From UHGV virus genome UHGV-0864147: a DNA stretch of 39,187 bases; one strand, 5' to 3'. The notes below the pieces were generated by a model. That model was not told the DNA's origin. It saw nothing but the letters and a program-made list of their open reading frames with translations, and made no database searches. Below are positions 4,507-32,371 of the stretch, one piece after another. The position numbers and the translations under genes were made by a program. Origin of the DNA: a virus. Numbering within the stretch: position 1 is the first letter of the stretch; the number at the start of each line of letters is the position of its first letter.

Positions 4507-5138
4507 CCTTCACAGTTGTAATCACTACAGCCTTCAAAATCATATGGGCTGTACTGCCAGGTTATTTTTCCGCAATGCGGACAATTCCAACGCACCTTCC
4601 CGCTTCGCGACTTCTTTCTTCTGTTCTGCTCTTTCAACCAGTCAGGCATGACCAAACCTGCGCCCTGAACCATTGTTCTGCGGTTAAAGTTATTGATATT
4701 GAACGTCAGACGCTTGGCTGCATCAGCAATGGAAAATGGCAACCAAACTATTCCTGGTTCGTTTTTGTTGGCGACGCTAAAGATGGTCGCTTTACTGAAG
4801 TCATCTGTTGGCAATCCACCGTTTTGAAGCCAGTAAACATCGTTGCCGTTCCAGCTACCTTTTTTGTAGGCCACATACGCAGTGCAATCTGACTCAATCA
4901 GGCTTTCTGTAGGGATGTACTGGCAATCAACGTGCCACACTGCCATTGCATCCACGCTATCAGCGCAAACAGGCTGATCGATATCTCGCCCACAATTCCA
5001 GGCTTTTTGGGCTTCTTCCAGCGTGTAAACATGAGCGCGATCGATATCAGAACTGTAACCATTACCGTTATGGCAATGGAATGAAGCGTTATTGCCCACA
5101 GTTTCACGCGAGCACATCATGTAAAAACGGTTAGTCAC
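4494..5138 (-). CDS. hypothetical Cys-rich protein
   Basis: 214 aa ORF in operon context; multiple Cys/His clusters (CPHCG, CEGW). Confidence 0.45.
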   Translation of the reverse strand: MTNRFYMMCSRETVGNNASFHCHNGNGYSSDIDRAHVYTLEEAQKAWNCGRDIDQPVCADSVDAMAVWHVDCQYIPTESLIESDCTAYVAYKKGSWNGNDVYWLQNGGLPTDDFSKATIFSVANKNEPGIVWLPFSIADAAKRLTFNINNFNRRTMVQGAGLVMPDWLKEQNRRKKSRSGKVRWNCPHCGKITWQYSPYDFEGCSDYNCEGWRE

Positions 5139-5602
5139 TGGTTGCCTCCTTTACGAAGCTGGGCGACGAACTCGTTAAGTGATATGTAGCAATCTCCAAA
5201 TGTTAACGAACCGCTCGACCGCATATGCTCCATAGCCATATCCACGCCCTGCGCCCGTACTTCAGCCAGGAAAGCGTCGGTGGCTGGGGTGTCAACACGG
5301 ATGCTGTCGCGCAAGATGAAAAATGCATTGAGCATTCCAGTCTCTGGCACTTCATCCTGATGCTTCTCATACGCATCAAGAGCCTTCATCATCTCATGTC
5401 CGAATGGTTGAGGGTGCGCAGACTTCAGCCCCGCACTCTCCGCTGCCAGCGCATTAGCACGCACCAGTTGCACTTCCAGTTGCGTTGCCAAATCGCTGAG
5501 CAGCTTTGCCACACTACGCATATCAACGGCACCACATTCAGCTTTCAGTTCCGAAGCCATCTCATGCCCGGCGGAAACTAACCCTTTGATATTACTTTCC
5601 AT
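5135..5602 (-). CDS. hypothetical protein
   Basis: 155 aa ORF, 4-bp overlap with downstream gene. Confidence 0.45.
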   Translation of the reverse strand: MESNIKGLVSAGHEMASELKAECGAVDMRSVAKLLSDLATQLEVQLVRANALAAESAGLKSAHPQPFGHEMMKALDAYEKHQDEVPETGMLNAFFILRDSIRVDTPATDAFLAEVRAQGVDMAMEHMRSSGSLTFGDCYISLNEFVAQLRKGGNQ

Positions 5603-5663
5603 CTTTACCCTCGCTTATCCACATAACTTATTGATTACATTGATAACTAAAAAGATCGTCGAT

Positions 5664-6011
5664 TCAGAACTCTTCGATGTTCCAGCCGCCACCTGCTTTC
5701 TTTGGTTTAACCGTTACCCCGATGATTCGGAACGGATACTGATCTGCGGCTACTTTGGTTTTCACCCTGGCGTCGTCGGTCCAGAATCCCCCTTTCACTT
5801 CGTGCAGTTCCATCTCTCCGGTGGCGAGCATCACAGCGAAATCGGGCGTATAGAACGTGTTGTCAGCTAACCGCAGCTTAATACCCTCGAATCGATACCA
5901 GGCGATTTCCCCTGCACGTTTACGCTGCTCAAGGTGCTGGCAATACGCAGATTCTGTTTTGTTCATCTGGCCTGTTTTGAGTCGACCAAGAGCCTGTATC
6001 TGTTTTCTCAT
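5664..6011 (-). CDS. hypothetical protein (DUF1064-like, recalled)
   Basis: 115 aa; start codon 4 bp from TTACC-N5-GGTAA site whose half-site supplies the SD. Confidence 0.45.
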   Translation of the reverse strand: MRKQIQALGRLKTGQMNKTESAYCQHLEQRKRAGEIAWYRFEGIKLRLADNTFYTPDFAVMLATGEMELHEVKGGFWTDDARVKTKVAADQYPFRIIGVTVKPKKAGGGWNIEEF

Positions 6012-6128: not shown

Positions 6129-6929
6129 TTACTTGATAAATCCTGCCGCCTTTCCCCGCCTGTATTCCTCCATCAGCCACTGCGCCGGTGTTATTCCCCC
6201 AAGGGTGGCGGCGTTAGGCATGCACCCGAAACTTCGCCCTGGTGGATGGTAAACGTCTCTCCCTGTGTCCGGAGGTGTACTCATGGGCTCTCGCTTTGCC
6301 TGTATGCTGATCACCGGATCGGGTATCTGCTGTCCGGAAGCTACCTTTTTCGCCCAATCATCGAGCAGCCTGCGCGCGTGTTTCTCAACCTCAATCTCGC
6401 TAAGCTGGCGCTGATACATTGCACGGCGGGTATCACATACGACCCAGTACATAACCGGATGTCGCCACGGGAATCTTTCGGGACCACCAGGATATAAACT
6501 TTTTTCCTTGCTGTACCGGTGAAACTCCGCCATCACATCGTCAATGGTGACGCCAAGAACCATCTTGCTGTCTTTACACCACTTGATGAATTGCCCTGGC
6601 GACGGCCAGAACGGAGACTCACTGGCGCGGGCGTGGCGCATACCAGCAGAAACCTGTTCACGGGTTCGGATCCCCCCTTCGGCAAACGCAGCAATCCACT
6701 GCTGTTTTGCAGCAACTTCCTGCTCTGGCGTCTTCAGGTTGGTTACCACTGCCGCCGGAAACAGTTGTTTCAGCTGTTTGAAAAGGGCATCAACAAGCCT
6801 CTCTGCTGACATGTTCACCACGTTGTCATTGTTGGTGTACTGATGCTCATAACCTGACATGCGAGAAAGGGCTTCTCCGTCACGGTTTTGTATCGCGGTA
6901 AAAACGTTGTTCACAAGAAATCCTCCCAT
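6129..6929 (-). CDS. replication protein P-like (DnaB helicase loader)
   Basis: Segment QQWIAAFAEGGIRTREQVSAGMRHARASESPFWPSPGQFIKWCK closely parallels lambda P. Confidence 0.75.
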   Translation of the reverse strand: MGGFLVNNVFTAIQNRDGEALSRMSGYEHQYTNNDNVVNMSAERLVDALFKQLKQLFPAAVVTNLKTPEQEVAAKQQWIAAFAEGGIRTREQVSAGMRHARASESPFWPSPGQFIKWCKDSKMVLGVTIDDVMAEFHRYSKEKSLYPGGPERFPWRHPVMYWVVCDTRRAMYQRQLSEIEVEKHARRLLDDWAKKVASGQQIPDPVISIQAKREPMSTPPDTGRDVYHPPGRSFGCMPNAATLGGITPAQWLMEEYRRGKAAGFIK

Positions 6930-7726
6930 GCTTCAGGGCTGTTCCAGTGCGGAACGTTGTTATCAGGTAATGTTGATTGCTTCTGTCTGCTAATCTGCAG
7001 CCGCCTTGCCAGCTTCTGCTCCCACTGTGCCTGATGGTATGCCTTACCCTCAGCCATCCAGTAAATTCTGAACTCTGCAAGTTCCTGTGCCGTTGGCAGA
7101 CTGTCCAGGTAGATCCCCTGCAATGAGCTTTTCCGAAGAAAGTCATCTGATGGCTGCCATTGTTCATGCATGACAAATTTGCCTAATTGCCCTGGCCCAC
7201 CAGGAGGAACAAAGTTATTCATCACGGCGTTGTTTGCGCCGGGGTCATGATGCACAGAATCCCCGTTTTTTGTCCTGCTCTCCCTCTCTTGGTTAAATGA
7301 CTGGTTATATGACTGGTTCTGGATCCCGTTTTTGGGATCATTCAACATCCCGTTTTTGGGATCATTCAACATCCCGTTTTTGGGTATATTCCCGTTTTCG
7401 GTAACATTACCGTTTTCGGGTTCATTGCCCCCCTCTCGGTTGCCTTTAATGTTCCCGTTTTTGGTTATATTAAGAGAGAAAACCCGCACTCTTTTTGTCG
7501 CTCCCTTTCTCTCTCCGGTATCTGAAATAAGCCCCATTTTCATGAGCGATATAAGCCCGGCCTGCACGGTTTTTTTATTCAGGCAAGTGTCTTTAACGAG
7601 GCGTTCTATGCTGGGGTAGCAGAGGTTATATTCATCGGCTCTGTCAGCCATCGAGAGCAGTATGAGCTTTAATGATGAGCTACCTGGATCTGTCTCCCAG
7701 GCCCAATCTGTTGCATGTCTGCTCAT
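6911..7726 (-). CDS. replication initiator (O-like, N-terminal winged HTH) with internal Asn/Gly-rich repeat
   Basis: N-terminal HTH-like region, repeated NGN/KNGMLNDP peptide encoded by tandem DNA repeats, gene overlaps P-like gene. Confidence 0.65.
   Translation of the reverse strand: MSRHATDWAWETDPGSSSLKLILLSMADRADEYNLCYPSIERLVKDTCLNKKTVQAGLISLMKMGLISDTGERKGATKRVRVFSLNITKNGNIKGNREGGNEPENGNVTENGNIPKNGMLNDPKNGMLNDPKNGIQNQSYNQSFNQERESRTKNGDSVHHDPGANNAVMNNFVPPGGPGQLGKFVMHEQWQPSDDFLRKSSLQGIYLDSLPTAQELAEFRIYWMAEGKAYHQAQWEQKLARRLQISRQKQSTLPDNNVPHWNSPEAWEDFL
7325..7474. repeat. iteron-like tandem repeats (putative ori) inside O-like gene
   Basis: Exact 24-bp tandem duplication at 7325-7348 and 7349-7372 plus four further CCCGTTTTYGG copies. 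Confidence 0.5.
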
Positions 7727-7741
7727 GATTAATCTCCGCTA

Positions 7742-8005
7742 TCAGCTTGAATGTTGTGGGGAGGAATTAATCATGATCTGCTTAATCTCAGCCCTGATGC
7801 GACGGTTTGATTCCATGGTGCACTCAACACAGTGTCCGTTGTAAACCCAACGTTCACTGTCATGTCCGTGCTTACATGGTTTTCCGGTGTAGTAGCGTTT
7901 AAGTCCGCGCTTTGCGGCATCAATACGTGTAATGATTTCCATGGTAAGCCCTGTTATTAGTATTGGGATTACGGTCATTTTGTGCTGACACAAAAAAAAG
8001 ATCAA
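7742..8005 (-). CDS. hypothetical small Cys/His-rich protein at cII-equivalent position
   Basis: 87 aa ORF downstream of Cro-like gene and terminator; CKHGH...CVEC motif. Confidence 0.35.
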   Translation of the reverse strand: MIFFLCQHKMTVIPILITGLTMEIITRIDAAKRGLKRYYTGKPCKHGHDSERWVYNGHCVECTMESNRRIRAEIKQIMINSSPQHSS

Positions 8006-8022
8006 CCAGATTTGGTTTTTTA

Positions 8023-8037
8023 TTACCTTTGAGGTGC
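8023..8037. promoter_or_regulatory. degenerate TTACC-N5-GGTGC site
   Basis: Between terminator and cII-position gene. Confidence 0.3.
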
Positions 8038-8044
8038 GAATAGA

Positions 8045-8071
8045 TATGAAAAGACCGCCGGGTGGCGGTCT
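8045..8071 (-). terminator. tR1-like terminator after Cro-like gene
   Basis: AGACCGCC ACCC GGCGGTCT followed by TTTTCATA on minus strand. Confidence 0.55.
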
Positions 8072-8092
8072 ACAGAGGGTTGTGGCTGGATA

Positions 8093-8323
8093 TCATGAGT
8101 AGAAGAAGTATGCCAGTTCTGCTTTTGAGCGCAGCCATTGTCTTGTTTTACAGGCTTTAAAAAGCCCATTCATCAATACTTTACCTGGCATTTTGCGCTT
8201 ACCTGTTAAGTGAGTCTGGATATAGTGACTCGTCGTTCCGGCTTCCTGTGCGAAGGCTTCACGCTCATCCGGAGTAAGTGCAAGCCAGTGCTTTTTGAAA
8301 TCGAAATGTCCGTTATCGCTCAT
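8093..8323 (-). CDS. Cro-like HTH regulator
   Basis: 76 aa, divergent from repressor gene across operator cluster, followed by terminator. Confidence 0.5.
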   Translation of the reverse strand: MSDNGHFDFKKHWLALTPDEREAFAQEAGTTSHYIQTHLTGKRKMPGKVLMNGLFKACKTRQWLRSKAELAYFFYS

Positions 8324-8348
8324 AGCTATTGCCTGATATTTATTTCAG

Positions 8349-8377
8349 ATAATAAATATTCACCCATAAGGTAACAA
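8349..8377 (-). promoter_or_regulatory. PR-like promoter for Cro-like gene
   Basis: Minus-strand -35 TTGTTA and -10 TATTAT with 17-bp spacer, overlapped by operator site. Confidence 0.4.
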
Positions 8378-8422
8378 AAATCAAGGATAGTTACCTATGG
8401 GGTGCATTTACCTGTTGGGTAA
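8360..8422. promoter_or_regulatory. OR-like operator cluster (three TTACC-N5-GGTAA-type sites at 8360-8374, 8391-8405, 8408-8422)
   Basis: Between divergent repressor and Cro-like genes; one perfect and two degenerate inverted repeats. Confidence 0.55.
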
Positions 8423-9670: not shown

Positions 9671-10488
9671 AACCGGGAATTTATTTCGGCATCAGCAACG
9701 AAGACTACCACGCCGGTGACGGCGTGAGTAAGTCGCAACTTGACATGGTTGCCAAGAATCCGGCGCTTCTTAAATGGGTTCAGGCAGCACCAGAAGACGA
9801 AGAGAAAAAGTCTGAACTGGATATGGGAACCGCATTGCACTGTCTGCTTCTGGAACCTGGAGAATTCGACAAACGCTTCATCGTTTCACCGAAATTCGAT
9901 CGTCGGACAAAACAAGGTAAAGCTGACGAAGAAGCATTTCTTCGTGATGTGGCGGATATGGGTATTACGGTACTTGATGTCGAGCAGTGGCGAAAACTGG
10001 AGCTGATGCGTGATAGCACAATGGCTCACCCGGCTGCACGCTGGATGTTGGAAGCACCTGGTTACTGCGAAGCGTCAATGTACTGGAACGATGAAGAGAC
10101 GGGTGAGTTGTGCCGAATTCGTCCAGACAAATGGCTGAACGAGCACAACGTGATCGTCGACGTGAAAAAGGTTGCAGATATGGACCGTTTTGCACGCCAC
10201 ATCGAGGAATTCCGCTACCACGTGCAGGACGCAATGTACCGCGAAGGCGCAATGAGGGTTACTGGTCAGCCGCATGGTTTTTTCTTTCTTGCCGTGAGCG
10301 AAAGCATTGATTGTGGTCGGTATCCGGTACGCGTGTTCGAGCTGGATGCGCAGGATGTCGATGCCGGGCACGCTCTGTTCCGCCGGGATCTGAATACCTA
10401 TCACGAATGCCGCATCAATGATGAATGGGGCGGTGTGGAAATCATTAAACGCCCTGAGTGGGCACGCAAACAGGATATGTACATATGA
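9667..10488 (+). CDS. exonuclease (PD-(D/E)XK family, RecE/YqaJ-like)
   Basis: 273 aa with acidic/lysine catalytic-like motifs (DVKK), translationally coupled to RecT. Confidence 0.7.
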   Translation: MKPGIYFGISNEDYHAGDGVSKSQLDMVAKNPALLKWVQAAPEDEEKKSELDMGTALHCLLLEPGEFDKRFIVSPKFDRRTKQGKADEEAFLRDVADMGITVLDVEQWRKLELMRDSTMAHPAARWMLEAPGYCEASMYWNDEETGELCRIRPDKWLNEHNVIVDVKKVADMDRFARHIEEFRYHVQDAMYREGAMRVTGQPHGFFFLAVSESIDCGRYPVRVFELDAQDVDAGHALFRRDLNTYHECRINDEWGGVEIIKRPEWARKQDMYI

Positions 10489-11426
10489 GCAACGACATCG
10501 CAAACATCAACGCACCAGTAGACACAGCAATCGCTGGAACTGCTGCAACTATTTTCAGCCCAGACGGCTTGAACCAACTGATGAAATTCGCCGAGGTAAT
10601 GGCGCAAAGCCGCGTAACGGTACCGGCGCACCTCGCCGGGAAACCAGCTGATTGCATGGCCGTGGCAATGCAGGCTGCGCAGTGGGGAATGAACCCGTTT
10701 GCCGTGGCTCAGAAAACCCATGTTGTGAACGGCACGCTAGGTTATGAAGCCCAATTAGTAAACGCAGTTATCTCAACGATGTCGCCAACAAAAGATCGCA
10801 TCAACTACGAGTGGTTCGGGCCGTGGGAACGCGTGATCGGTAAGTTTGTTGAGAAAACATCCAAAAACGGCAATCCATATATTGCACCAGGCTGGACTCT
10901 AAAAGACGAAGAAGGCTGCGGTGTTCGCGTATGGGCAACCATGAAGGGCGAGGATCAACCTCGAGTGCTTGAGTTAATGCTATCTCAAGCACAGGTAAGA
11001 AACTCCACACTTTGGGCCAGTGATCCGAAACAACAACTCGCATACCTTGCGACAAAACGCTGGTCTCGCTTGCACTGTCCTGACGTAATCATGGGCGTCT
11101 ACACACCAGACGAATTACAGGAAACGGCACCGCGCGTTGAGCGAGACATTACTCCGCAAACGACCACTGCTGCGGGAATGAACAGTCTGATCAACGCTAA
11201 ACAAGTGAAAAAGCCTGATGAGCAAACGCGTAAAGCGGATAGCCGTGATCCAGAAGAAATGCTGATGGCCTTTACCAGCGCAGCGATGAATTACAGCACT
11301 GTCTCCGAACTGGATAAAGCTTACAAATACATTGCACAAAAACTTTCAGATGATGACGAACTGCTGGCAAAAGCCACCGACGTTTACAGCGTTCGTCGGG
11401 AAGAATTAAACGAAACATCTATGTAA
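10485..11426 (+). CDS. recT: RecT-family single-strand annealing protein
   Basis: Start at ATG overlapping exonuclease stop; sequence resembles RecT family. Confidence 0.8.
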   Translation: MSNDIANINAPVDTAIAGTAATIFSPDGLNQLMKFAEVMAQSRVTVPAHLAGKPADCMAVAMQAAQWGMNPFAVAQKTHVVNGTLGYEAQLVNAVISTMSPTKDRINYEWFGPWERVIGKFVEKTSKNGNPYIAPGWTLKDEEGCGVRVWATMKGEDQPRVLELMLSQAQVRNSTLWASDPKQQLAYLATKRWSRLHCPDVIMGVYTPDELQETAPRVERDITPQTTTAAGMNSLINAKQVKKPDEQTRKADSRDPEEMLMAFTSAAMNYSTVSELDKAYKYIAQKLSDDDELLAKATDVYSVRREELNETSM

Positions 11427-15937: not shown

Positions 15938-16328
15938 CGTCTTTTCTCCCCGGAATTAACTCGCGTGGATTATCGGAACGGTGATAGAGCCAGATACCAA
16001 TTCGCACTGCGACAATTGCTGATACGAATGCGCCAGCAGAGAAAACAATCCCTTTCTCGAACGAGTCCTGCGTGATGGTAGGGATCAGGCTGGCTATGCC
16101 GATAAGAATTGATGCTGCTGGTTTGTAAAAAAGAAGGCCGCAGAGAAAGCTGAGCATCGACAAGAATACGCGACGACGAATTGGATACTCTACCGCAGAG
16201 GTAACAAAAATTACCGCACCAGCAAGAGCACCGAGCGCCACCTCTGGCGGAACACCTACGATAACCGCAGCAAGAGAGCTCACACTAAGCCATTGATTTA
16301 AAGACTCAGTTGTTATGTTAACCGACAT
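15924..16328 (-). CDS. holin-like membrane protein
   Basis: About 134 aa, multiple TM segments; overlaps downstream membrane protein gene. Confidence 0.45.
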   Translation of the reverse strand: MSVNITTESLNQWLSVSSLAAVIVGVPPEVALGALAGAVIFVTSAVEYPIRRRVFLSMLSFLCGLLFYKPAASILIGIASLIPTITQDSFEKGIVFSAGAFVSAIVAVRIGIWLYHRSDNPRELIPGRKDDGNA

Positions 16329-16503
16329 AGCACACACCATTTTTTTTGTACATATCGAACCTCTTCACTTACAGGTCACCAAACACAATAAACCATATAT
16401 GTTTAACCATCAGATATTCTGAAATAACTATCAATTCATTGGTTTTTGATGACAATATTCATAAACAACCATAAATGTAAGGATGTTTATTAGTTGCCAA
16501 AAT

Positions 16504-19110
16504 TTATTTCCTGCAAACTCCAGATGATGTTAATCCATCAAAAATAACCTGCACTCTGGCAATAACAACATCAACTCCAGAAGTCGTTTCACTTGCATAA
16601 CCAAGTTTTATTTTAGATACAATATCCTGAGTAAGTTCAGATATTTCAGTTTCTGCAATGTTACCAGAGGCCATGTGATTATCGTATGCCATAGAATGAA
16701 TTCCATTATTGACATCGATTGAACTAGTATGTTTGTGAAAAATAGATGGGTTTACCTGAAACGAATTTGAACCGATAAGATCAGAAGATACTCCATTCAT
16801 CACTGCAGTACAGCGTGGAATATTATTATCGGTTATTGTCATATGCAGACGGTTACCAGTTAACCCCTCACCAAGTGTGACATAATACGCCAATTCTCCA
16901 CCTGCATATTGTTTCCCCTCAACAATAACAGTAATCCCTCTTAATTTCTGATTAGCTAGCAAAAACTTATTACTGTCTATATAGCATTTATTTGCGGAAC
17001 CAAAAACAGCCCCTTCTAAAATATCTGATGAATAGGAATAAATAAGGTCACCTGAAACAAAGGAAAGAATATCAGATACGTTTCCTTTTTTAGATAAGTT
17101 GGGAGAATAGCTATTAACTATTTCATATTGTCCTGTGATAAAATCAAGGTAAACGCCATCAGTTTTCATCTCTTTAAAGAAAATGCTATTAAAGCATCCA
17201 TCAAGAACCGGTGGATATATTCTAGAGCTTGCATAAGCTGTTGGGTGATTCTTATTATTACCACTACCAGGCGAATAAACATCTTCGTTAGTCATTGACT
17301 TTTTAAGCTTAACAGGAATCATCGGCTGCATATCAATTTTGCAGTTCCCTGAACCACCGATGCGAGGATAAAATAAACCACCAAACCTTACAATATTACT
17401 ACTGAATAGTATTTCGTTATCGTTAAGTGTTATCTCAACGAAGTTTCCAATAAGTTTAAATTCAACTGAAAACAAACCAAGTGGAGCAGATAATTTAACA
17501 ATATTGCGCATAAAAACACCTACAGTCCCTGTTGATGCAGTATAGTGTGTGGTTTCAAAGGCAGAGCCTGTATATTTCAAGTTAATGAAATTATTATGGT
17601 ATGAAGACAATTGGAATTGAATCCCAGAACTAAGGATTTCAATATCTACAAATTGAATCCTTACGGAGTAAGAATATGATAAATCTTCATATTCATAAGG
17701 CAATGTAACATCTTTTGAAATAGTTGCCCTCACATAATTACCAGAAACCACATCAACCCCATCACGTACTGCATTAAAGTAACGATTAAAATCAATAAGC
17801 CCAGCGCCAACATACTGCGCATATGAACGAGTCCATCCTGCCATTGCGTTTCGTCCATTCTGAGCTTCTAAACTGCTAAATTCAGAGTCACTTGTGGTAC
17901 TTGATGGGAGGATATTTGTACAAAAAACAATTTCAGGCATTGAAGTAATATCATTCAGTTCAGCCATCAATTTAAAAAAAGTTTTCTGCGGGAAGTTACC
18001 AACATCCCAACCATCTCCGTCATTCATGCCAAAAGCAATAATAACAACATCAGGGTTAATATCACGAATGTAATCAATCCAGCGTCTGTTCGTGTCTGAA
18101 TACCATGGGTACTGTGAGTTATAAGAAGTAATTGCTGGTGTATCTTTTCCAAGGTCATAGTACCTCATTCCACCAATTGCTCTGTTAAATAAAGTAGAAC
18201 TTGGGAATTTCTCTTGCAAAACTCTCTTAAGATGAGCGGCAAAAATGCTTGATCGATCCACTGTGCTTATATTATATGGGGCACTTAAGCTGTCACCAAC
18301 TAACACTATTTTTGAGTTAGGCCTTGATAATCTCTCAAGTGTTTTAGATGTGACTAAACTGCAGGAATTAATGAACTGAGTACTATTTAGCGTCTGTTCA
18401 AGTGTATCACCAAATCTGGTACCAACGTATGATGATCCGTTGACACTTGCTAGCTTAAGGCATAAATCAGCAGTATCTGTAATTGAAAAAATAGGAACAG
18501 GACGTCCTAAACTGTCATACCCCTGAATTGAGTTTGCCCTAGAAGATGCTGATGCCATTTCGCTTACTATCTCAGGGAAGCGGAGTGTTTTAGATATGTT
18601 GCTGTTAATAACTCCTTTGATAGATGAGTCTGTATATTTCTTCGTGGAAGCGTCCTGAGGAAATAATGGATCATCAAGGTTACGAATACGATTGCCGAGT
18701 GCATCGTAGTAAGTGGCACTAAATGATGGTTTACGAAGAGCCAGCCGAGCCATGCTTTTGACTAACTGGATCAGCATCGTTAGCTTATCAAAAGCATCCT
18801 CATGCACTTCCGCAAAGAACTTACCCTGATTGCGCAGATCAGTTTCCTGTGTAACCGGTAGCTCTCGTGATATAGAAATCTTATAGCCATTGGCCAACGC
18901 CTTCGACAATATTACATTTCCACCATTGTATCCTCCGGCCCCGGTAACTATATAATCAGTATCAAGAGTCAGTACGGTGATATTTTCATGAATATCAACA
19001 ACCTGCACAATCAAATCAGATTTATTGAAAACCCTAAAGGCATACGGAAACGATGTCGTAACGCCGTTACCGGTGTATTCGTTGTGGTCAACTTCGGTTG
19101 AGACCGTCAT
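16504..19110 (-). CDS. tailspike: T7 gp17-like N-terminal adaptor domain plus SGNH/GDSL hydrolase domain
   Basis: 868 aa; N-terminus YTGNGVTTSFPY pattern; internal VLVGDSLSA (block I) and FGMNDG (block III) SGNH motifs; AT-rich. Confidence 0.75.
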   Translation of the reverse strand: MTVSTEVDHNEYTGNGVTTSFPYAFRVFNKSDLIVQVVDIHENITVLTLDTDYIVTGAGGYNGGNVILSKALANGYKISISRELPVTQETDLRNQGKFFAEVHEDAFDKLTMLIQLVKSMARLALRKPSFSATYYDALGNRIRNLDDPLFPQDASTKKYTDSSIKGVINSNISKTLRFPEIVSEMASASSRANSIQGYDSLGRPVPIFSITDTADLCLKLASVNGSSYVGTRFGDTLEQTLNSTQFINSCSLVTSKTLERLSRPNSKIVLVGDSLSAPYNISTVDRSSIFAAHLKRVLQEKFPSSTLFNRAIGGMRYYDLGKDTPAITSYNSQYPWYSDTNRRWIDYIRDINPDVVIIAFGMNDGDGWDVGNFPQKTFFKLMAELNDITSMPEIVFCTNILPSSTTSDSEFSSLEAQNGRNAMAGWTRSYAQYVGAGLIDFNRYFNAVRDGVDVVSGNYVRATISKDVTLPYEYEDLSYSYSVRIQFVDIEILSSGIQFQLSSYHNNFINLKYTGSAFETTHYTASTGTVGVFMRNIVKLSAPLGLFSVEFKLIGNFVEITLNDNEILFSSNIVRFGGLFYPRIGGSGNCKIDMQPMIPVKLKKSMTNEDVYSPGSGNNKNHPTAYASSRIYPPVLDGCFNSIFFKEMKTDGVYLDFITGQYEIVNSYSPNLSKKGNVSDILSFVSGDLIYSYSSDILEGAVFGSANKCYIDSNKFLLANQKLRGITVIVEGKQYAGGELAYYVTLGEGLTGNRLHMTITDNNIPRCTAVMNGVSSDLIGSNSFQVNPSIFHKHTSSIDVNNGIHSMAYDNHMASGNIAETEISELTQDIVSKIKLGYASETTSGVDVVIARVQVIFDGLTSSGVCRK

Positions 19111-29900: not shown

Positions 29901-32371
29901 CAGAATCCCCCAACAGTAAGACGAGGAATAACGGCAAGAACAGACAGCGGCAACGGATCGAGCTGACGAATTTTTACACGTCCGTTTTTGCCCCAGTTAC
30001 TGTCCAGTTTCACTTCTACTTTTCCGGTAGCGTCATCAACAGGATCATCGTAGAACTCGAATTCACGCTGTGGATATTCGTACCATTTACCGCCGGGCGT
30101 AGTCGCCCAGATGCCGCGACTGGCATTCACAACAAGAGTAACGGACGGGATCACCTGTTTTTTGTCCAGCAGCGTTTCCTGTCCGTTAATGTTGATATCC
30201 AGTGTTTCGAATTCAGCAGTTATTGGCAGGCCGATGTGCACAACAGCCCCAGGTGATTCCAGCGTGACGGCACCTCCGGAAACCACTTTCTGTGGTTCCA
30301 CGTTCGCATCAGAGAGAATGTTTACGGTCTGGCCTTCAAGATGAGACAGGCCTCCAAATGTCCGGCGCGCCATCTGCCAGTTCGTGGTAGCCACATTCCT
30401 GAGGGATGGCGGGACGTTCCTGTTAGCACGAACCACTACAGCGGTATTGCTGGTTACAGAAATGATGTCGCAACGTAATTCTTTTGACACTTCATCGCCA
30501 GTATCAGGATCAGTTCCGGTATAAGGGAACTGTAGTTGAGCACCGACATCACTACTGGTGAAGTACGCACCACCAGAAACACTGATTGTATATTCCGCGC
30601 GGTAATCCCATTCGCCAGAACCACCAGTGATGATCATCGTTCTGTCAGACGTATTTCTTCCATCATAGCTAAGGCCAGAATCAACAAAGAAAGCATCTTC
30701 ATCGCTGGTAAATAAACGGCTGGACAGTCGCTCGATGTATCTCACTGTTTGCCCGTTAACGGTTCGGTTAACGACGAAATACACCGCATCTTCATTGCCT
30801 TCGCTGATACTGCATGTGCTTTCATATTTTCCGGTACTGGATTGTGGTGCCCATGCAAAAACCTGCTGATCACGCAAATAGGTCATCACCAGTAATTTAC
30901 CGTCATCACGAATGCAGAATGCGCTGGAGTAAGGAACAATCGAGAAGCACCAGTCAACAATGCTGTGCTTCTGAAAAAGATGATTGGCAAGGATGGTCAG
31001 GTCGTTCCCCTGATAGCCGTCAACATCGAATGAGTAGGCCAGATCACGGACAACACTGCCTTTCTCTTGGACGAACAGAGCAATATTCGCTACGGCAATT
31101 GGTGGGACATTACTCGAGCCATTTGATCCCTGAGAGCTGAATGCAAATGATGATGGGGTTAACACTTTGTTCTGGTCGCCGGTGATGACGTACTCACCTC
31201 CGGAAGTCAGCGCCACCAGAGAACCAACATCAATCAGGTGACGGATCTCATTAACCTGATGCCCGGCATAGGTGTAGATAATTCTGTCGTCATCCTGCGT
31301 AGGATTGCTTTTGCCAAAATCCTTATAATCCCCGGTACGGCTGGCCCAGATAGTCTGAGGGAACGCAGTCGATGCGGCGAAGTAAAGACGTTGTTGATAA
31401 TAAACAACAGTGCCAGGATAACCATTAACACTGTTCCAGGCATATTTAGCCCATTTATAGCTGGCATTATCCTCGCCCACGACCTGCGAAGGGATATAGG
31501 AAATCACCTCGGCAGTTGCAGTAGTTCCATTTGCAGCAGTGATACGGGCAATGCCAAAACCACTGTGCAGATATTCCCACTCAATGCCAGTATCATCATC
31601 ACCGGATCCGCCCCAGCCATCCCATGATGTGCCTTCTGTATGCGAAGGGCGCAAAGTACCTGTTTTGCCTGCTGTAACGGCGCGATAGTAGTTACTGTCT
31701 GCACGGCGAATATCGCCAATCGACGTACTCTTACTGGTTTCCCATACCGGCACAGAATCCACTGCAGGCTGTTCCAGATAGAACAATTTGCCTGCCTGCT
31801 CCGCGCCAAAAATAGAGGCGCTTGCCGTTAACGTAATTGTCCCGGTGCTGGCGCTGGCATAAACCGTCACTGACTCATCAATATTGATATCTTCAAATGG
31901 CCCGTTCTTCGTTACCACATCAACCAGTTGCCAGTTGTCATGCGCATAGCGGCGCAGCTCTTTCGGCGGGTATGCCGGGTGAACCAGCGTAAGCACGTCG
32001 GCGCTTTGCGTGAATTTAATTCGGAACAGATCGGCTTCAGTATATGGCGTGGCAATTTCATAAATAACATTGCTGCTGTTCAGCACCAACGCACCATCTT
32101 TGATAACGCGCATGTACTGGTGTCCGAACTCCAGAGCATAGGTCTGAACCGTCGAGAACTGGAACGGGATCAGGCGGCATTTCCGATTTGGGTATTTGGC
32201 GGCACCGACAAAACGCGTACCAGGTCGATTCTCAACGCCGCCATACTGCCGCACGATAAAGTTATCGCACTTGCGCAATGCCACCTGGTACTTCGCCATG
32301 TCGATACGACCGTACAACGACGGTCCAATCTCACCACCGGCAAAGCTGGGCTGGATCCAACTGATAGCCAT
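29900..32371 (-). CDS. large tail/virion structural protein
   Basis: 823 aa; position and size comparable to podovirus tail tube protein. Confidence 0.5.
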   Translation of the reverse strand: MAISWIQPSFAGGEIGPSLYGRIDMAKYQVALRKCDNFIVRQYGGVENRPGTRFVGAAKYPNRKCRLIPFQFSTVQTYALEFGHQYMRVIKDGALVLNSSNVIYEIATPYTEADLFRIKFTQSADVLTLVHPAYPPKELRRYAHDNWQLVDVVTKNGPFEDINIDESVTVYASASTGTITLTASASIFGAEQAGKLFYLEQPAVDSVPVWETSKSTSIGDIRRADSNYYRAVTAGKTGTLRPSHTEGTSWDGWGGSGDDDTGIEWEYLHSGFGIARITAANGTTATAEVISYIPSQVVGEDNASYKWAKYAWNSVNGYPGTVVYYQQRLYFAASTAFPQTIWASRTGDYKDFGKSNPTQDDDRIIYTYAGHQVNEIRHLIDVGSLVALTSGGEYVITGDQNKVLTPSSFAFSSQGSNGSSNVPPIAVANIALFVQEKGSVVRDLAYSFDVDGYQGNDLTILANHLFQKHSIVDWCFSIVPYSSAFCIRDDGKLLVMTYLRDQQVFAWAPQSSTGKYESTCSISEGNEDAVYFVVNRTVNGQTVRYIERLSSRLFTSDEDAFFVDSGLSYDGRNTSDRTMIITGGSGEWDYRAEYTISVSGGAYFTSSDVGAQLQFPYTGTDPDTGDEVSKELRCDIISVTSNTAVVVRANRNVPPSLRNVATTNWQMARRTFGGLSHLEGQTVNILSDANVEPQKVVSGGAVTLESPGAVVHIGLPITAEFETLDININGQETLLDKKQVIPSVTLVVNASRGIWATTPGGKWYEYPQREFEFYDDPVDDATGKVEVKLDSNWGKNGRVKIRQLDPLPLSVLAVIPRLTVGGF

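Follow-up and report, generated by a model that had tools for sequence, protein, structure and literature searches.

A putative lambda-type replication origin within the initiator gene of a phiV10-like Escherichia coli phage

Why does the gene for a phage replication initiator carry a cluster of imperfectly palindromic repeats in the middle of its coding sequence? The question arises in a 39,187-nucleotide phage genome (UHGV virus genome UHGV-0864147; this whole stretch is called the window below), identified as a phiV10-like E. coli podophage of the genus Uetakevirus in the epsilon15 group. Its initiator gene (6911-7726, minus strand; 271 amino acids), 99.5% identical to that of phiv142-3 and 98.1% to that of phiV10, is an open reading frame (ORF) for an N-terminal HTH_36 domain, a repeat-encoded linker and a DnaT-like C-terminal domain. 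The sequence comparisons described here make it likely that the repeat array at 7323-7467 is the initiator-binding part of the phage replication origin, lying inside its own initiator gene, and that a second set of repeats, the GAAYC element at 7286-7321, belongs to the same origin. A lambda-like initiator-binding array had been proposed as a putative origin in an earlier note on this DNA (at 7298-7474), and the position of the units, their shape, their conservation and their microevolution are all as would be expected of one.

Tandem Repeats Finder reported an exact 24-base-pair (bp) unit, ATCCCGTTTTTGGGATCATTCAAC, in 2.6 copies at 7323-7384 (100% matches), which is the exact tandem duplication already described in the earlier note, and an 18-bp array of 3.1 copies at 7372-7426. 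A repeat search placed six in-register copies starting at 7323, 7347, 7371, 7389, 7407 and 7452. When at most one mismatch is allowed, the motif CCCGTTTTYGG has 8 matches in the window against 1.17 expected, a count that none of the shuffles reached, and seven of the eight lie within 7262-7464. The core CCRAAAWYGG, as read on the minus strand, has seven exact matches in the whole 39-kb window (0.90 expected), of which six fall inside 140 bp (7326-7464). Because these counts are far above expectation, the cluster is real and not a product of chance. The one stray core, an exact CCAAAAACGG at 10861-10870 on the plus strand inside an ORF at 10458-11426, fits the chance expectation of about 0.9 per window.

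Read along the gene, on the minus strand, the array begins with iteron 1 (7452-7467, core CCAAAAACGG at 7455-7464), found by the repeat search and near-invariant in 44 collinear alleles. Iteron 2 (7407-7422, core CCGAAAACGG at 7410-7419) and iteron 3 (7389-7404, core CCGAAAACGG at 7392-7401) come from the same search and are near-invariant in close relatives, as is iteron 4 (7371-7386, core CCAAAAACGG at 7374-7383), which is part of the tandem repeat. Iteron 5 (GATCCCAAAAACGGGATG, 7347-7362, core at 7350-7359) lies within the exact 24-bp duplication, and iteron 6 (ATCCCAAAAACGGGAT, 7323-7338, core at 7326-7335) is the last and most palindromic unit. In relatives too, it is usually the last unit that comes closest to a perfect palindrome, and the second element lies directly beside it. 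Written on the gene strand, the units are (G)ATCCCAAAAACGGGAT(G), and their consensus is the 16-bp dyad-symmetric RTCCC-AAAAAC-GGGAY. Among 270 unique units collected from relatives, three positions outside the CC/GG pairs are complementary (z = 3.4, 8.1 and 6.7 against shuffles) and the fourth is not. Since the complementarity of the arms reaches 3 bp beyond CC/GG, the unit is a 16-bp imperfect palindrome, the form that would be expected, judging by sequence, of a site for a dimeric winged-helix protein.

The array occupies the linker between the HTH_36 and DnaT-like domains and encodes residues from about 87 to 135, the cores being read as [PT][KE]NG. With 17 Asn and 9 Gly in 65 residues, the linker has the Asn/Gly-rich composition attributed to it before. 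Two further stretches were tried as extra iterons and rejected, both being polymorphic among close relatives: the copy of CCCGTTTTYGG at 7262-7272 and a degenerate, non-conserved pseudo-unit, AACCGAGAGGGGGGCAATG, at 7430-7448 (minus strand), which is a substitution hot spot. These two stretches are probably not functional units. GATC sites at 7322, 7336 and 7360 overlap the left arms of the last iterons, and units of Edwardsiella phage GF-2 carry GATC as well; a Dam/SeqA role is not claimed, as the window holds 147 GATC sites against 152 expected and has equally dense 60-bp stretches elsewhere.

Relatives were collected with an alignment of the N-terminal domain, which fetched 80 near-identical loci from viral contigs and 80 diverse loci from bacterial genomes (Vibrio, Pseudoalteromonas, Acinetobacter, Providencia, Marinomonas, Edwardsiella, Enterobacter, Serratia, Sulfuricella, Burkholderiaceae, Sphingomonadales and Desulfovibrionaceae). 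In the near-identical set the array region has 47 distinct versions. These contain 1, 2, 3 or 5 copies of the 24-bp unit, the number of 18-bp units varies too, and copies are gained or lost as whole units of 24, 18 and 12 bp. Since the sites lie within a coding linker, gain or loss of a whole unit alters the number of binding sites and the length of the linker together; alleles in the databases span 271-311 amino acids, and the best 120 protein matches are all near-identical E. coli alleles. In the 44 collinear alleles, only 2 of 60 core positions segregate (nucleotide diversity, pi, 0.003), against 12 of 87 in the rest of the array (pi 0.033). Substitutions cluster at two places, the degenerate stretch (about 7430-7448) and the distal copy (7262-7272).

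In the 80 diverse loci, we found 142 exact gene-strand matches to CCRAAAWYGG at +240 to +620 of the gene (29.8 kb in all), just after the part coding for the N-domain, and 6 in the remaining 222 kb. Four of these six belong to a tandemly duplicated second initiator gene in Arsenophonus. In Arsenophonus nasoniae (locus L109, 196-891 and 1465-2244), the small upstream gene and the initiator gene are duplicated in tandem, an iteron array and a GAAYC element being present in both initiator copies. The comparison with relatives that the earlier note had called for therefore shows an array kept with the N-domain across about 80 diverse loci, with cores nearly invariant in close relatives. The period of the units is mostly 24 bp in the N-domain relatives that we read; in the diverse loci, 39 of 103 core spacings are not multiples of 3.

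The type of repeat follows the N-terminal domain of the initiator. In a translated search of phage genomes, some relatives match only the N-terminal half of the protein and others only the C-terminal domain. The N-domain relatives that we read (Edwardsiella GF-2, Vibrio H20, Acinetobacter AP22 and the E. coli PPompW prophage) all have CCC-(A/T tract)-GGG units directly after the N-domain. Their C-domains differ, being of lambda-O type followed by a P gene in GF-2, of DnaT type in PPompW and of unrelated types in H20 and AP22. AP22 (genus Obolenskvirus; locus L004, 1489-2235) has the same architecture with a DnaB-like helicase gene next. The GF-2 protein is a chimera in which residues 1-128 match the window protein (52% identity) and residues 137-280 match lambda O residues 156-299 (62%), and the junction of the two modules falls just past the array and the second element. 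GF-2 (locus L002, gene at 1501-2343) also shares a 29-bp stretch, at 90% identity, with the lambda sequence that adjoins lambda's AT-rich region on the right, which places the module junction inside the origin.

The converse case is Salmonella SPN1S, a phage of the same genus with the same DnaT-like C-domain and another N-domain: CCRAAAWYGG is absent from its gene, which instead has seven GTCCGCW motifs in direct and inverted orientation (0.8 expected), clustered at 1084-1113 and 1363-1403 of locus L006. Judged by sequence, these clusters probably form an in-gene origin proper to SPN1S and linked to its distinct N-domain. After the second of them come a purine run, (GAAGA)n, and a stretch rich in A. 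Within the N-domain family itself, proteins with a 7-residue insertion (K-G-G-S type; 27 caught by a regular expression and five more assigned by eye from their N-termini) have CCAAYRDYGG units and never CCRAAAWYGG, and those without it (36 loci) have the CCRAAAWYGG core, with no crossover between the subtypes. Both subtypes occur in Acinetobacter, even within one genome (ANC 3789), so the unit type tracks the protein and not the host. Many further Acinetobacter genome loci (L106-L162) share the architecture and carry subtype units such as ACAGTNCCAACAAYGGAAC, some of them inverted. The array shared along with the N-domain despite exchanged C-domains, together with the contrast of SPN1S, means that the repeats travel with the N-domain, which is the classical lambdoid rule for origin specificity.

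The second element, CAGAACCAGTCATATAACCAGTCATTTAACCAAGAG (7286-7321, minus strand), reads CAGAACC-AGTCATA-TAACC-AGTCATT-TAACC-AAGAG, that is, GAAYC-type repeats every 12 bp, and was reported by Tandem Repeats Finder as a 12-bp tandem at 7290-7318. The left edge of the array as first drawn, 7298, cuts through this conserved element and is therefore not upheld. In 70 of the 80 diverse loci, GAAYC-N6-8-[GT]AAYC follows within a few bases of the last iteron; in this zone the pattern occurs 121 times, against 9 occurrences in the rest of the gene strand and 5 on the complementary strand. GAAYC is repeated two or three times per locus, 12- and 13-bp spacings are about equally common, and the copies fall in more than one reading frame in 58 of the 70 loci, a mixture of frames that identifies them, as far as sequence can, as a DNA-level signal. 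Two of 32 sites of the window element segregate among close relatives, and phiV10 has three copies of the 12-mer. By position, the element may be a candidate unwinding element; alternatively, GAAYC may represent half-sites for monomeric or single-stranded DNA (ssDNA) binding, by analogy with the 13-mers of RK2 (PMC4081077).

In relatives, the GAAYC element is often followed by an A-rich run; GGGACACAGAATCTCCCAAAGAATCTACCAATAGAATCTAAAAATAAAAA is an example of the whole arrangement. After the 12-mers of the window comes a purine-rich tract instead of an A/T run (AAGAGAGGGAGAGCAGGACAAAAAACGGGGA, 7261-7291, minus strand), which includes the pseudo-unit at 7262-7272 and is variable among close relatives; purines make up 43 of 63 positions over 7260-7322.

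Several points weigh against an origin at this site. A strong AT-rich unwinding region is missing from the window: within the gene, the 40-mers of lowest duplex stability, relative to the whole window, reach only z = +1.7 at 7440-7485, which is the upstream end of the array, and z = +1.25 at 7280-7320, in contrast to the clear A-rich run of lambda and many relatives. All six window cores are in one reading frame, so that the argument from reading frames rests on the relatives. The exact 24-bp duplication reflects recent slippage and by itself says nothing on function. The loci compared are kin, and counts and shuffle z-scores overstate their independence. The protein, which is O-like in role and position as the earlier note had called it, has no Pfam Phage_rep_O match (PF04492, E <= 0.01), and hhalign of the N-domain family profile against the lambda O N-terminus gave a probability of 7.6%. 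Our literature searches found no binding or replication data for this initiator family and no study of the origin of phiV10, of epsilon15 or of phages with this N-domain.

Could the units bind the initiator, or another phage or host protein, for control only (autoregulation, a roadblock, titration or handcuffing), with replication starting elsewhere? In plasmids, iterons act in initiation as well as in copy control (PMC4980987), the window array has no strong AT-rich unwinding region beside it, and there is a promoter-like site upstream from which transcription must cross the array. Against this, in-gene iterons are the origin in the lambdoid phages in which this was tested by experiment (PMC7466680), and the place just after the last unit, where an unwinding region would be expected, is taken by the conserved second element, with an A-rich run in most relatives. 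No comparable repeat cluster turned up elsewhere in the window (other tandem repeats are at most 44 bp long, with scores of 31-42), and a cluster of DnaA boxes is absent, the initiator gene having none and the window two against 4.2 expected. We regard a purely regulatory array as improbable.

Less probable still, and in our view rather remote, is that the repeats matter only as protein, as a flexible Asn/Gly/Pro-rich linker of [PT][KE]NG modules whose repetition is a by-product of slippage. The window taken by itself would suit this explanation, with six cores that encode KNG or ENG in a shared frame and a strong compositional bias of the linker, and so would the free variation in unit number among close relatives, as in a slippage-prone and tolerant linker. 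In the diverse loci, however, the same core is translated in three frames (P[KE]NG 104, xQKR 28 and PKTE 10 of the 142 matches), 24 of the 39 loci having exact cores use more than one frame, and the spacings that are not multiples of 3 include those of Vibrio salinus (locus L088; 17, 17, 23 and 24 bp). Cores that are read in all three frames are not explained by a peptide repeat. The codons of the window units point the same way: all four Pro codons are CCC (5.6% in the window's other genes), five of six Gly codons are GGG (15.4% elsewhere) and all six Asn codons are AAC (52.8% elsewhere), choices which, with the rare CCC and GGG among them, are exactly those that build the CCC...GGG dyad. Co-varying arms would be meaningless for a peptide, and the core type tracks the N-domain subtype.

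That the units act as small RNA hairpins in the early mRNA, affecting translation, pausing or the stability of the initiator message, is hardly credible: each can fold into a stem of 5-6 bp with a 6-nucleotide loop, and a simple scan calls terminator-like hairpins on the opposite strand (7333-7376), but Rfam gave no meaningful match in 6800-8400 (one microRNA match, E = 0.79), some relatives have inverted units (CCGTTAATGG, CCCGTTTTT) that preserve the DNA dyad site, arm combinations of the wobble type (G-T) are rare (for example 8/270), and co-variation with the subtype of the DNA-binding domain is unexpected for an RNA element. The two plus-strand calls at 7333-7376 arise where neighbouring iteron arms pair across the 8-nucleotide spacer and the T-run of the next unit comes after them; they lie antisense to the gene and probably have no significance.

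From the anatomy of the site, its conservation at the DNA level, the co-variation with the N-domain and the gene context, we infer how binding, unwinding, loader recruitment and origin firing might proceed. Dimers of the N-terminal HTH_36 domain would bind the six 16-bp units and form a complex like the O-some, by analogy with the lambda origin (oriλ). This complex would distort the DNA beside the last and most palindromic unit, where the GAAYC 12-mers and the purine-rich tract lie. With its known ssDNA-binding fold, the DnaT-like C-terminal domain could then hold the opened strand, dock the lambda-P-like loader, or both, and the loader would deliver the host DnaB. Transcription from the early rightward promoter would cross the site and may help its activation.

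A bolder reading, which we put forward tentatively and consider possible but not probable, is that iterons plus GAAYC form a bipartite origin signature of a large HTH_36 initiator family, in which GAAYC would be an unwinding element bound by initiator monomers or as ssDNA and would replace the AT-rich region, much as RK2 13-mers or DnaA-trios might be likened to it. The family extends over temperate and virulent phages and over prophages of Gamma-, Beta- and Alphaproteobacteria and Desulfovibrionaceae. If this reading is true, sequence could reveal the position of the origin and the specificity of the initiator in hundreds of phages, among them the prophages that carry the gene in about 8% of complete E. 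coli genomes.

The in-gene origin at 7323-7467, which we consider the likely reading, assigns a probable origin to the phiV10 group, podophages that infect E. coli O157 and form prophages. The lambda rule, by which the origin lies in the initiator linker, the N-domain sets specificity and C-domains can be exchanged, also appears to hold for another, widespread family of initiator N-domains. A simple signature, CC-N6-GG dyad units followed by GAAYC 12-13-mers, could serve to annotate origins and to predict groups of replication incompatibility or specificity. Practical uses would be the construction of phage-derived replicons, the interpretation of induction read-depth profiles and the engineering of these phages. 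The concept of an in-gene origin is not new, and the novelty is modest.

The N-terminal winged-helix-like DNA-binding domain of the initiator (residues 1-86; coding region 7469-7726, minus strand) is a conserved block in two family alignments and has a Pfam HTH_36 match at residues 18-67 (1.8e-10); profile matches to PDB were weak and non-significant (E >= 0.14) and were to winged-helix regulators of GntR, PadR and other HTH types. The C-terminal domain (residues 180-265; coding region 6932-7189, minus strand) matches Pfam DnaT (PF17948, residues 184-252, 1.1e-15), and its roughly 85 residues found the DnaT structures 9zbt, 6aep, 4ou6, 4ou7, 2ru8 and 9zbu by phmmer (E 7e-21 to 8e-19). The whole protein matches PHROG 1032, replication initiation protein, at 1.4e-108. 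Single-sequence structure prediction gave a mean predicted local distance difference test (pLDDT) score of 37.5, unusable for fold comparison.

Next to the initiator gene is the gene for a lambda-P-like helicase loader (6129-6914, minus strand; Pfam Phage_lambda_P 1.5e-56, PHROG 109), whose start, according to the phiV10 and phiv142-3 annotation, makes a 4-bp overlap (ATGA) with the stop of the initiator gene. The upstream sequence has, on the same strand and in this order, a promoter-like site, a cro-like gene, a hairpin resembling a terminator and a small gene, together with a divergent repressor-like gene; this is the layout of a lambdoid early-right operon. The pR-like promoter candidate (8349-8377, minus strand; TTGTTA-17-TATTAT, 9/12, by consensus match only) lies upstream of the cro-like gene and points towards the array, and a GC-rich hairpin with a T-run is found at 8052-8071 (minus strand) between the cro-like gene and the next small gene. 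As this layout resembles pR-cro-tR1, read-through or antitermination may be required for transcripts to reach the initiator gene.

Neither an origin nor a repeat feature is marked at the array in the phiV10 and phiv142-3 records, and the gene names in the public records that we inspected are only "primosomal protein", "replication initiation protein" or "DnaT-like". Of 5,426 complete E. coli genomes, 424 have the gene, under the sole annotation "DnaT-like ssDNA-binding domain-containing protein". Elsewhere in the window, a perfect DnaA box, TTATCCACA, is found at 5615-5623 (plus strand), in the gap between ORFs at 5135-5602 and 5664-6011 (both minus strand), about 1.7 kb downstream of the array. 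GC skew was rejected as an origin locator: its cumulative curve has a shallow turn near 7-9 kb, at the place of the divergent cI/cro switch in transcription, and in a phage of 39 kb such a turn cannot serve to locate an origin. A low-GC island at about 16000-19000 (GC 0.37 against about 0.49 elsewhere) suggests a horizontally acquired accessory gene.

How does this site compare with known systems? With E. coli DnaT (primosomal protein I) the initiator shares only the C-terminal ssDNA-binding domain (E about 1e-20); the names "primosomal protein" and "DnaT-like" in public records arise because the C-terminal 85 or so residues match DnaT. The N-terminal two thirds of the initiator (HTH_36 plus repeat linker) are unrelated to DnaT, so the full DnaT architecture is lacking, and the context of DnaT is replication restart, as opposed to a phage replication module here. 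Iteron plasmids (RepA, RepE, pi, TrfA) likewise combine a winged-helix initiator with repeats beside an unwinding element. In RK2, the 13-mers in the unwinding element can be bound as ssDNA by the initiator (PMC4081077, PMC4980987), and the GAAYC 12-13-mers could be analogous. The plasmid iterons are simple direct repeats, however, in contrast to the palindromic units within coding sequence here. Pfam gave no Rep_3 or other plasmid Rep match to the window protein; PPompW alone had a weak RP-C match below the cut-off.

Among phages, gene 18 of P22 and gene 18 of phage L have initiator-specific in-gene repeats which vary with the type of initiator and from which an origin was predicted by sequence (PMC8022706). 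The phage L gene has six TGTCCAACGGA repeats, and its record annotates a putative rep_origin at 31650-31726. Its gp18 has another N-domain with no HTH_36 match and another repeat, and, unlike in the window, the repeats are followed by a clear AT-rich run and a gene for a DnaB-type helicase. The two-gene architecture is shared by DopC/DopE, a domesticated O-like/P-like pair of Cellvibrionales and Oceanospirillales (Brezellec et al. 2017, PMC5509034), which has the HTH_36 N-domain and the DnaT C-terminal domain followed by a protein of the lambda-P family. In dopC those authors saw no iteron-like repeats, from which they concluded that the gene has ceased to act as an origin (PMC5509034). Since the phage gene keeps a full array and dopC has none, the phage gene looks like the undomesticated, origin-bearing form.

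The closest counterpart of the site itself is oriλ. In lambda and the Shiga toxin (Stx) phages the in-gene iterons are the origin, and synonymous mutations in them abolish replication (PMC7466680). Like the window array, oriλ occupies a central part of the initiator gene, within the linker that joins a DNA-binding N-domain to a C-domain (PMC7466680), and consists of dyad units with TCCC...GGGA arms around an A-tract (the four annotated lambda iterons are ATCCCTCAAAACGAGGGA and variants). A P-type helicase loader likewise comes next, with the same 4-bp ATGA overlap between O and P, and the early-right operon context is the same. The number of units varies between relatives there too, Stx phages having 6 iterons.

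The differences lie in the protein and in the detail of the units. Lambda O matches Phage_rep_O at 5.7e-36, whereas the window protein has an HTH_36 N-domain and a C-domain of DnaT-like and not of lambda-O type, and BLASTP of the window protein against lambda O gave E = 0.07. HTH_36 in lambda O has been reported by HHpred (PMC5509034), a homology that we did not reproduce. The unit is 16 bp here against 18-19 bp in lambda, with half-sites about 3 bp closer, and the six units share one frame. The lambda iterons are followed by an AT-rich run, those of the window instead by the GAAYC element of 12-13-bp repeats. By these comparisons, the array most likely belongs to a lambda-type in-gene origin whose initiator is built differently and which has a second, conserved repeat element.

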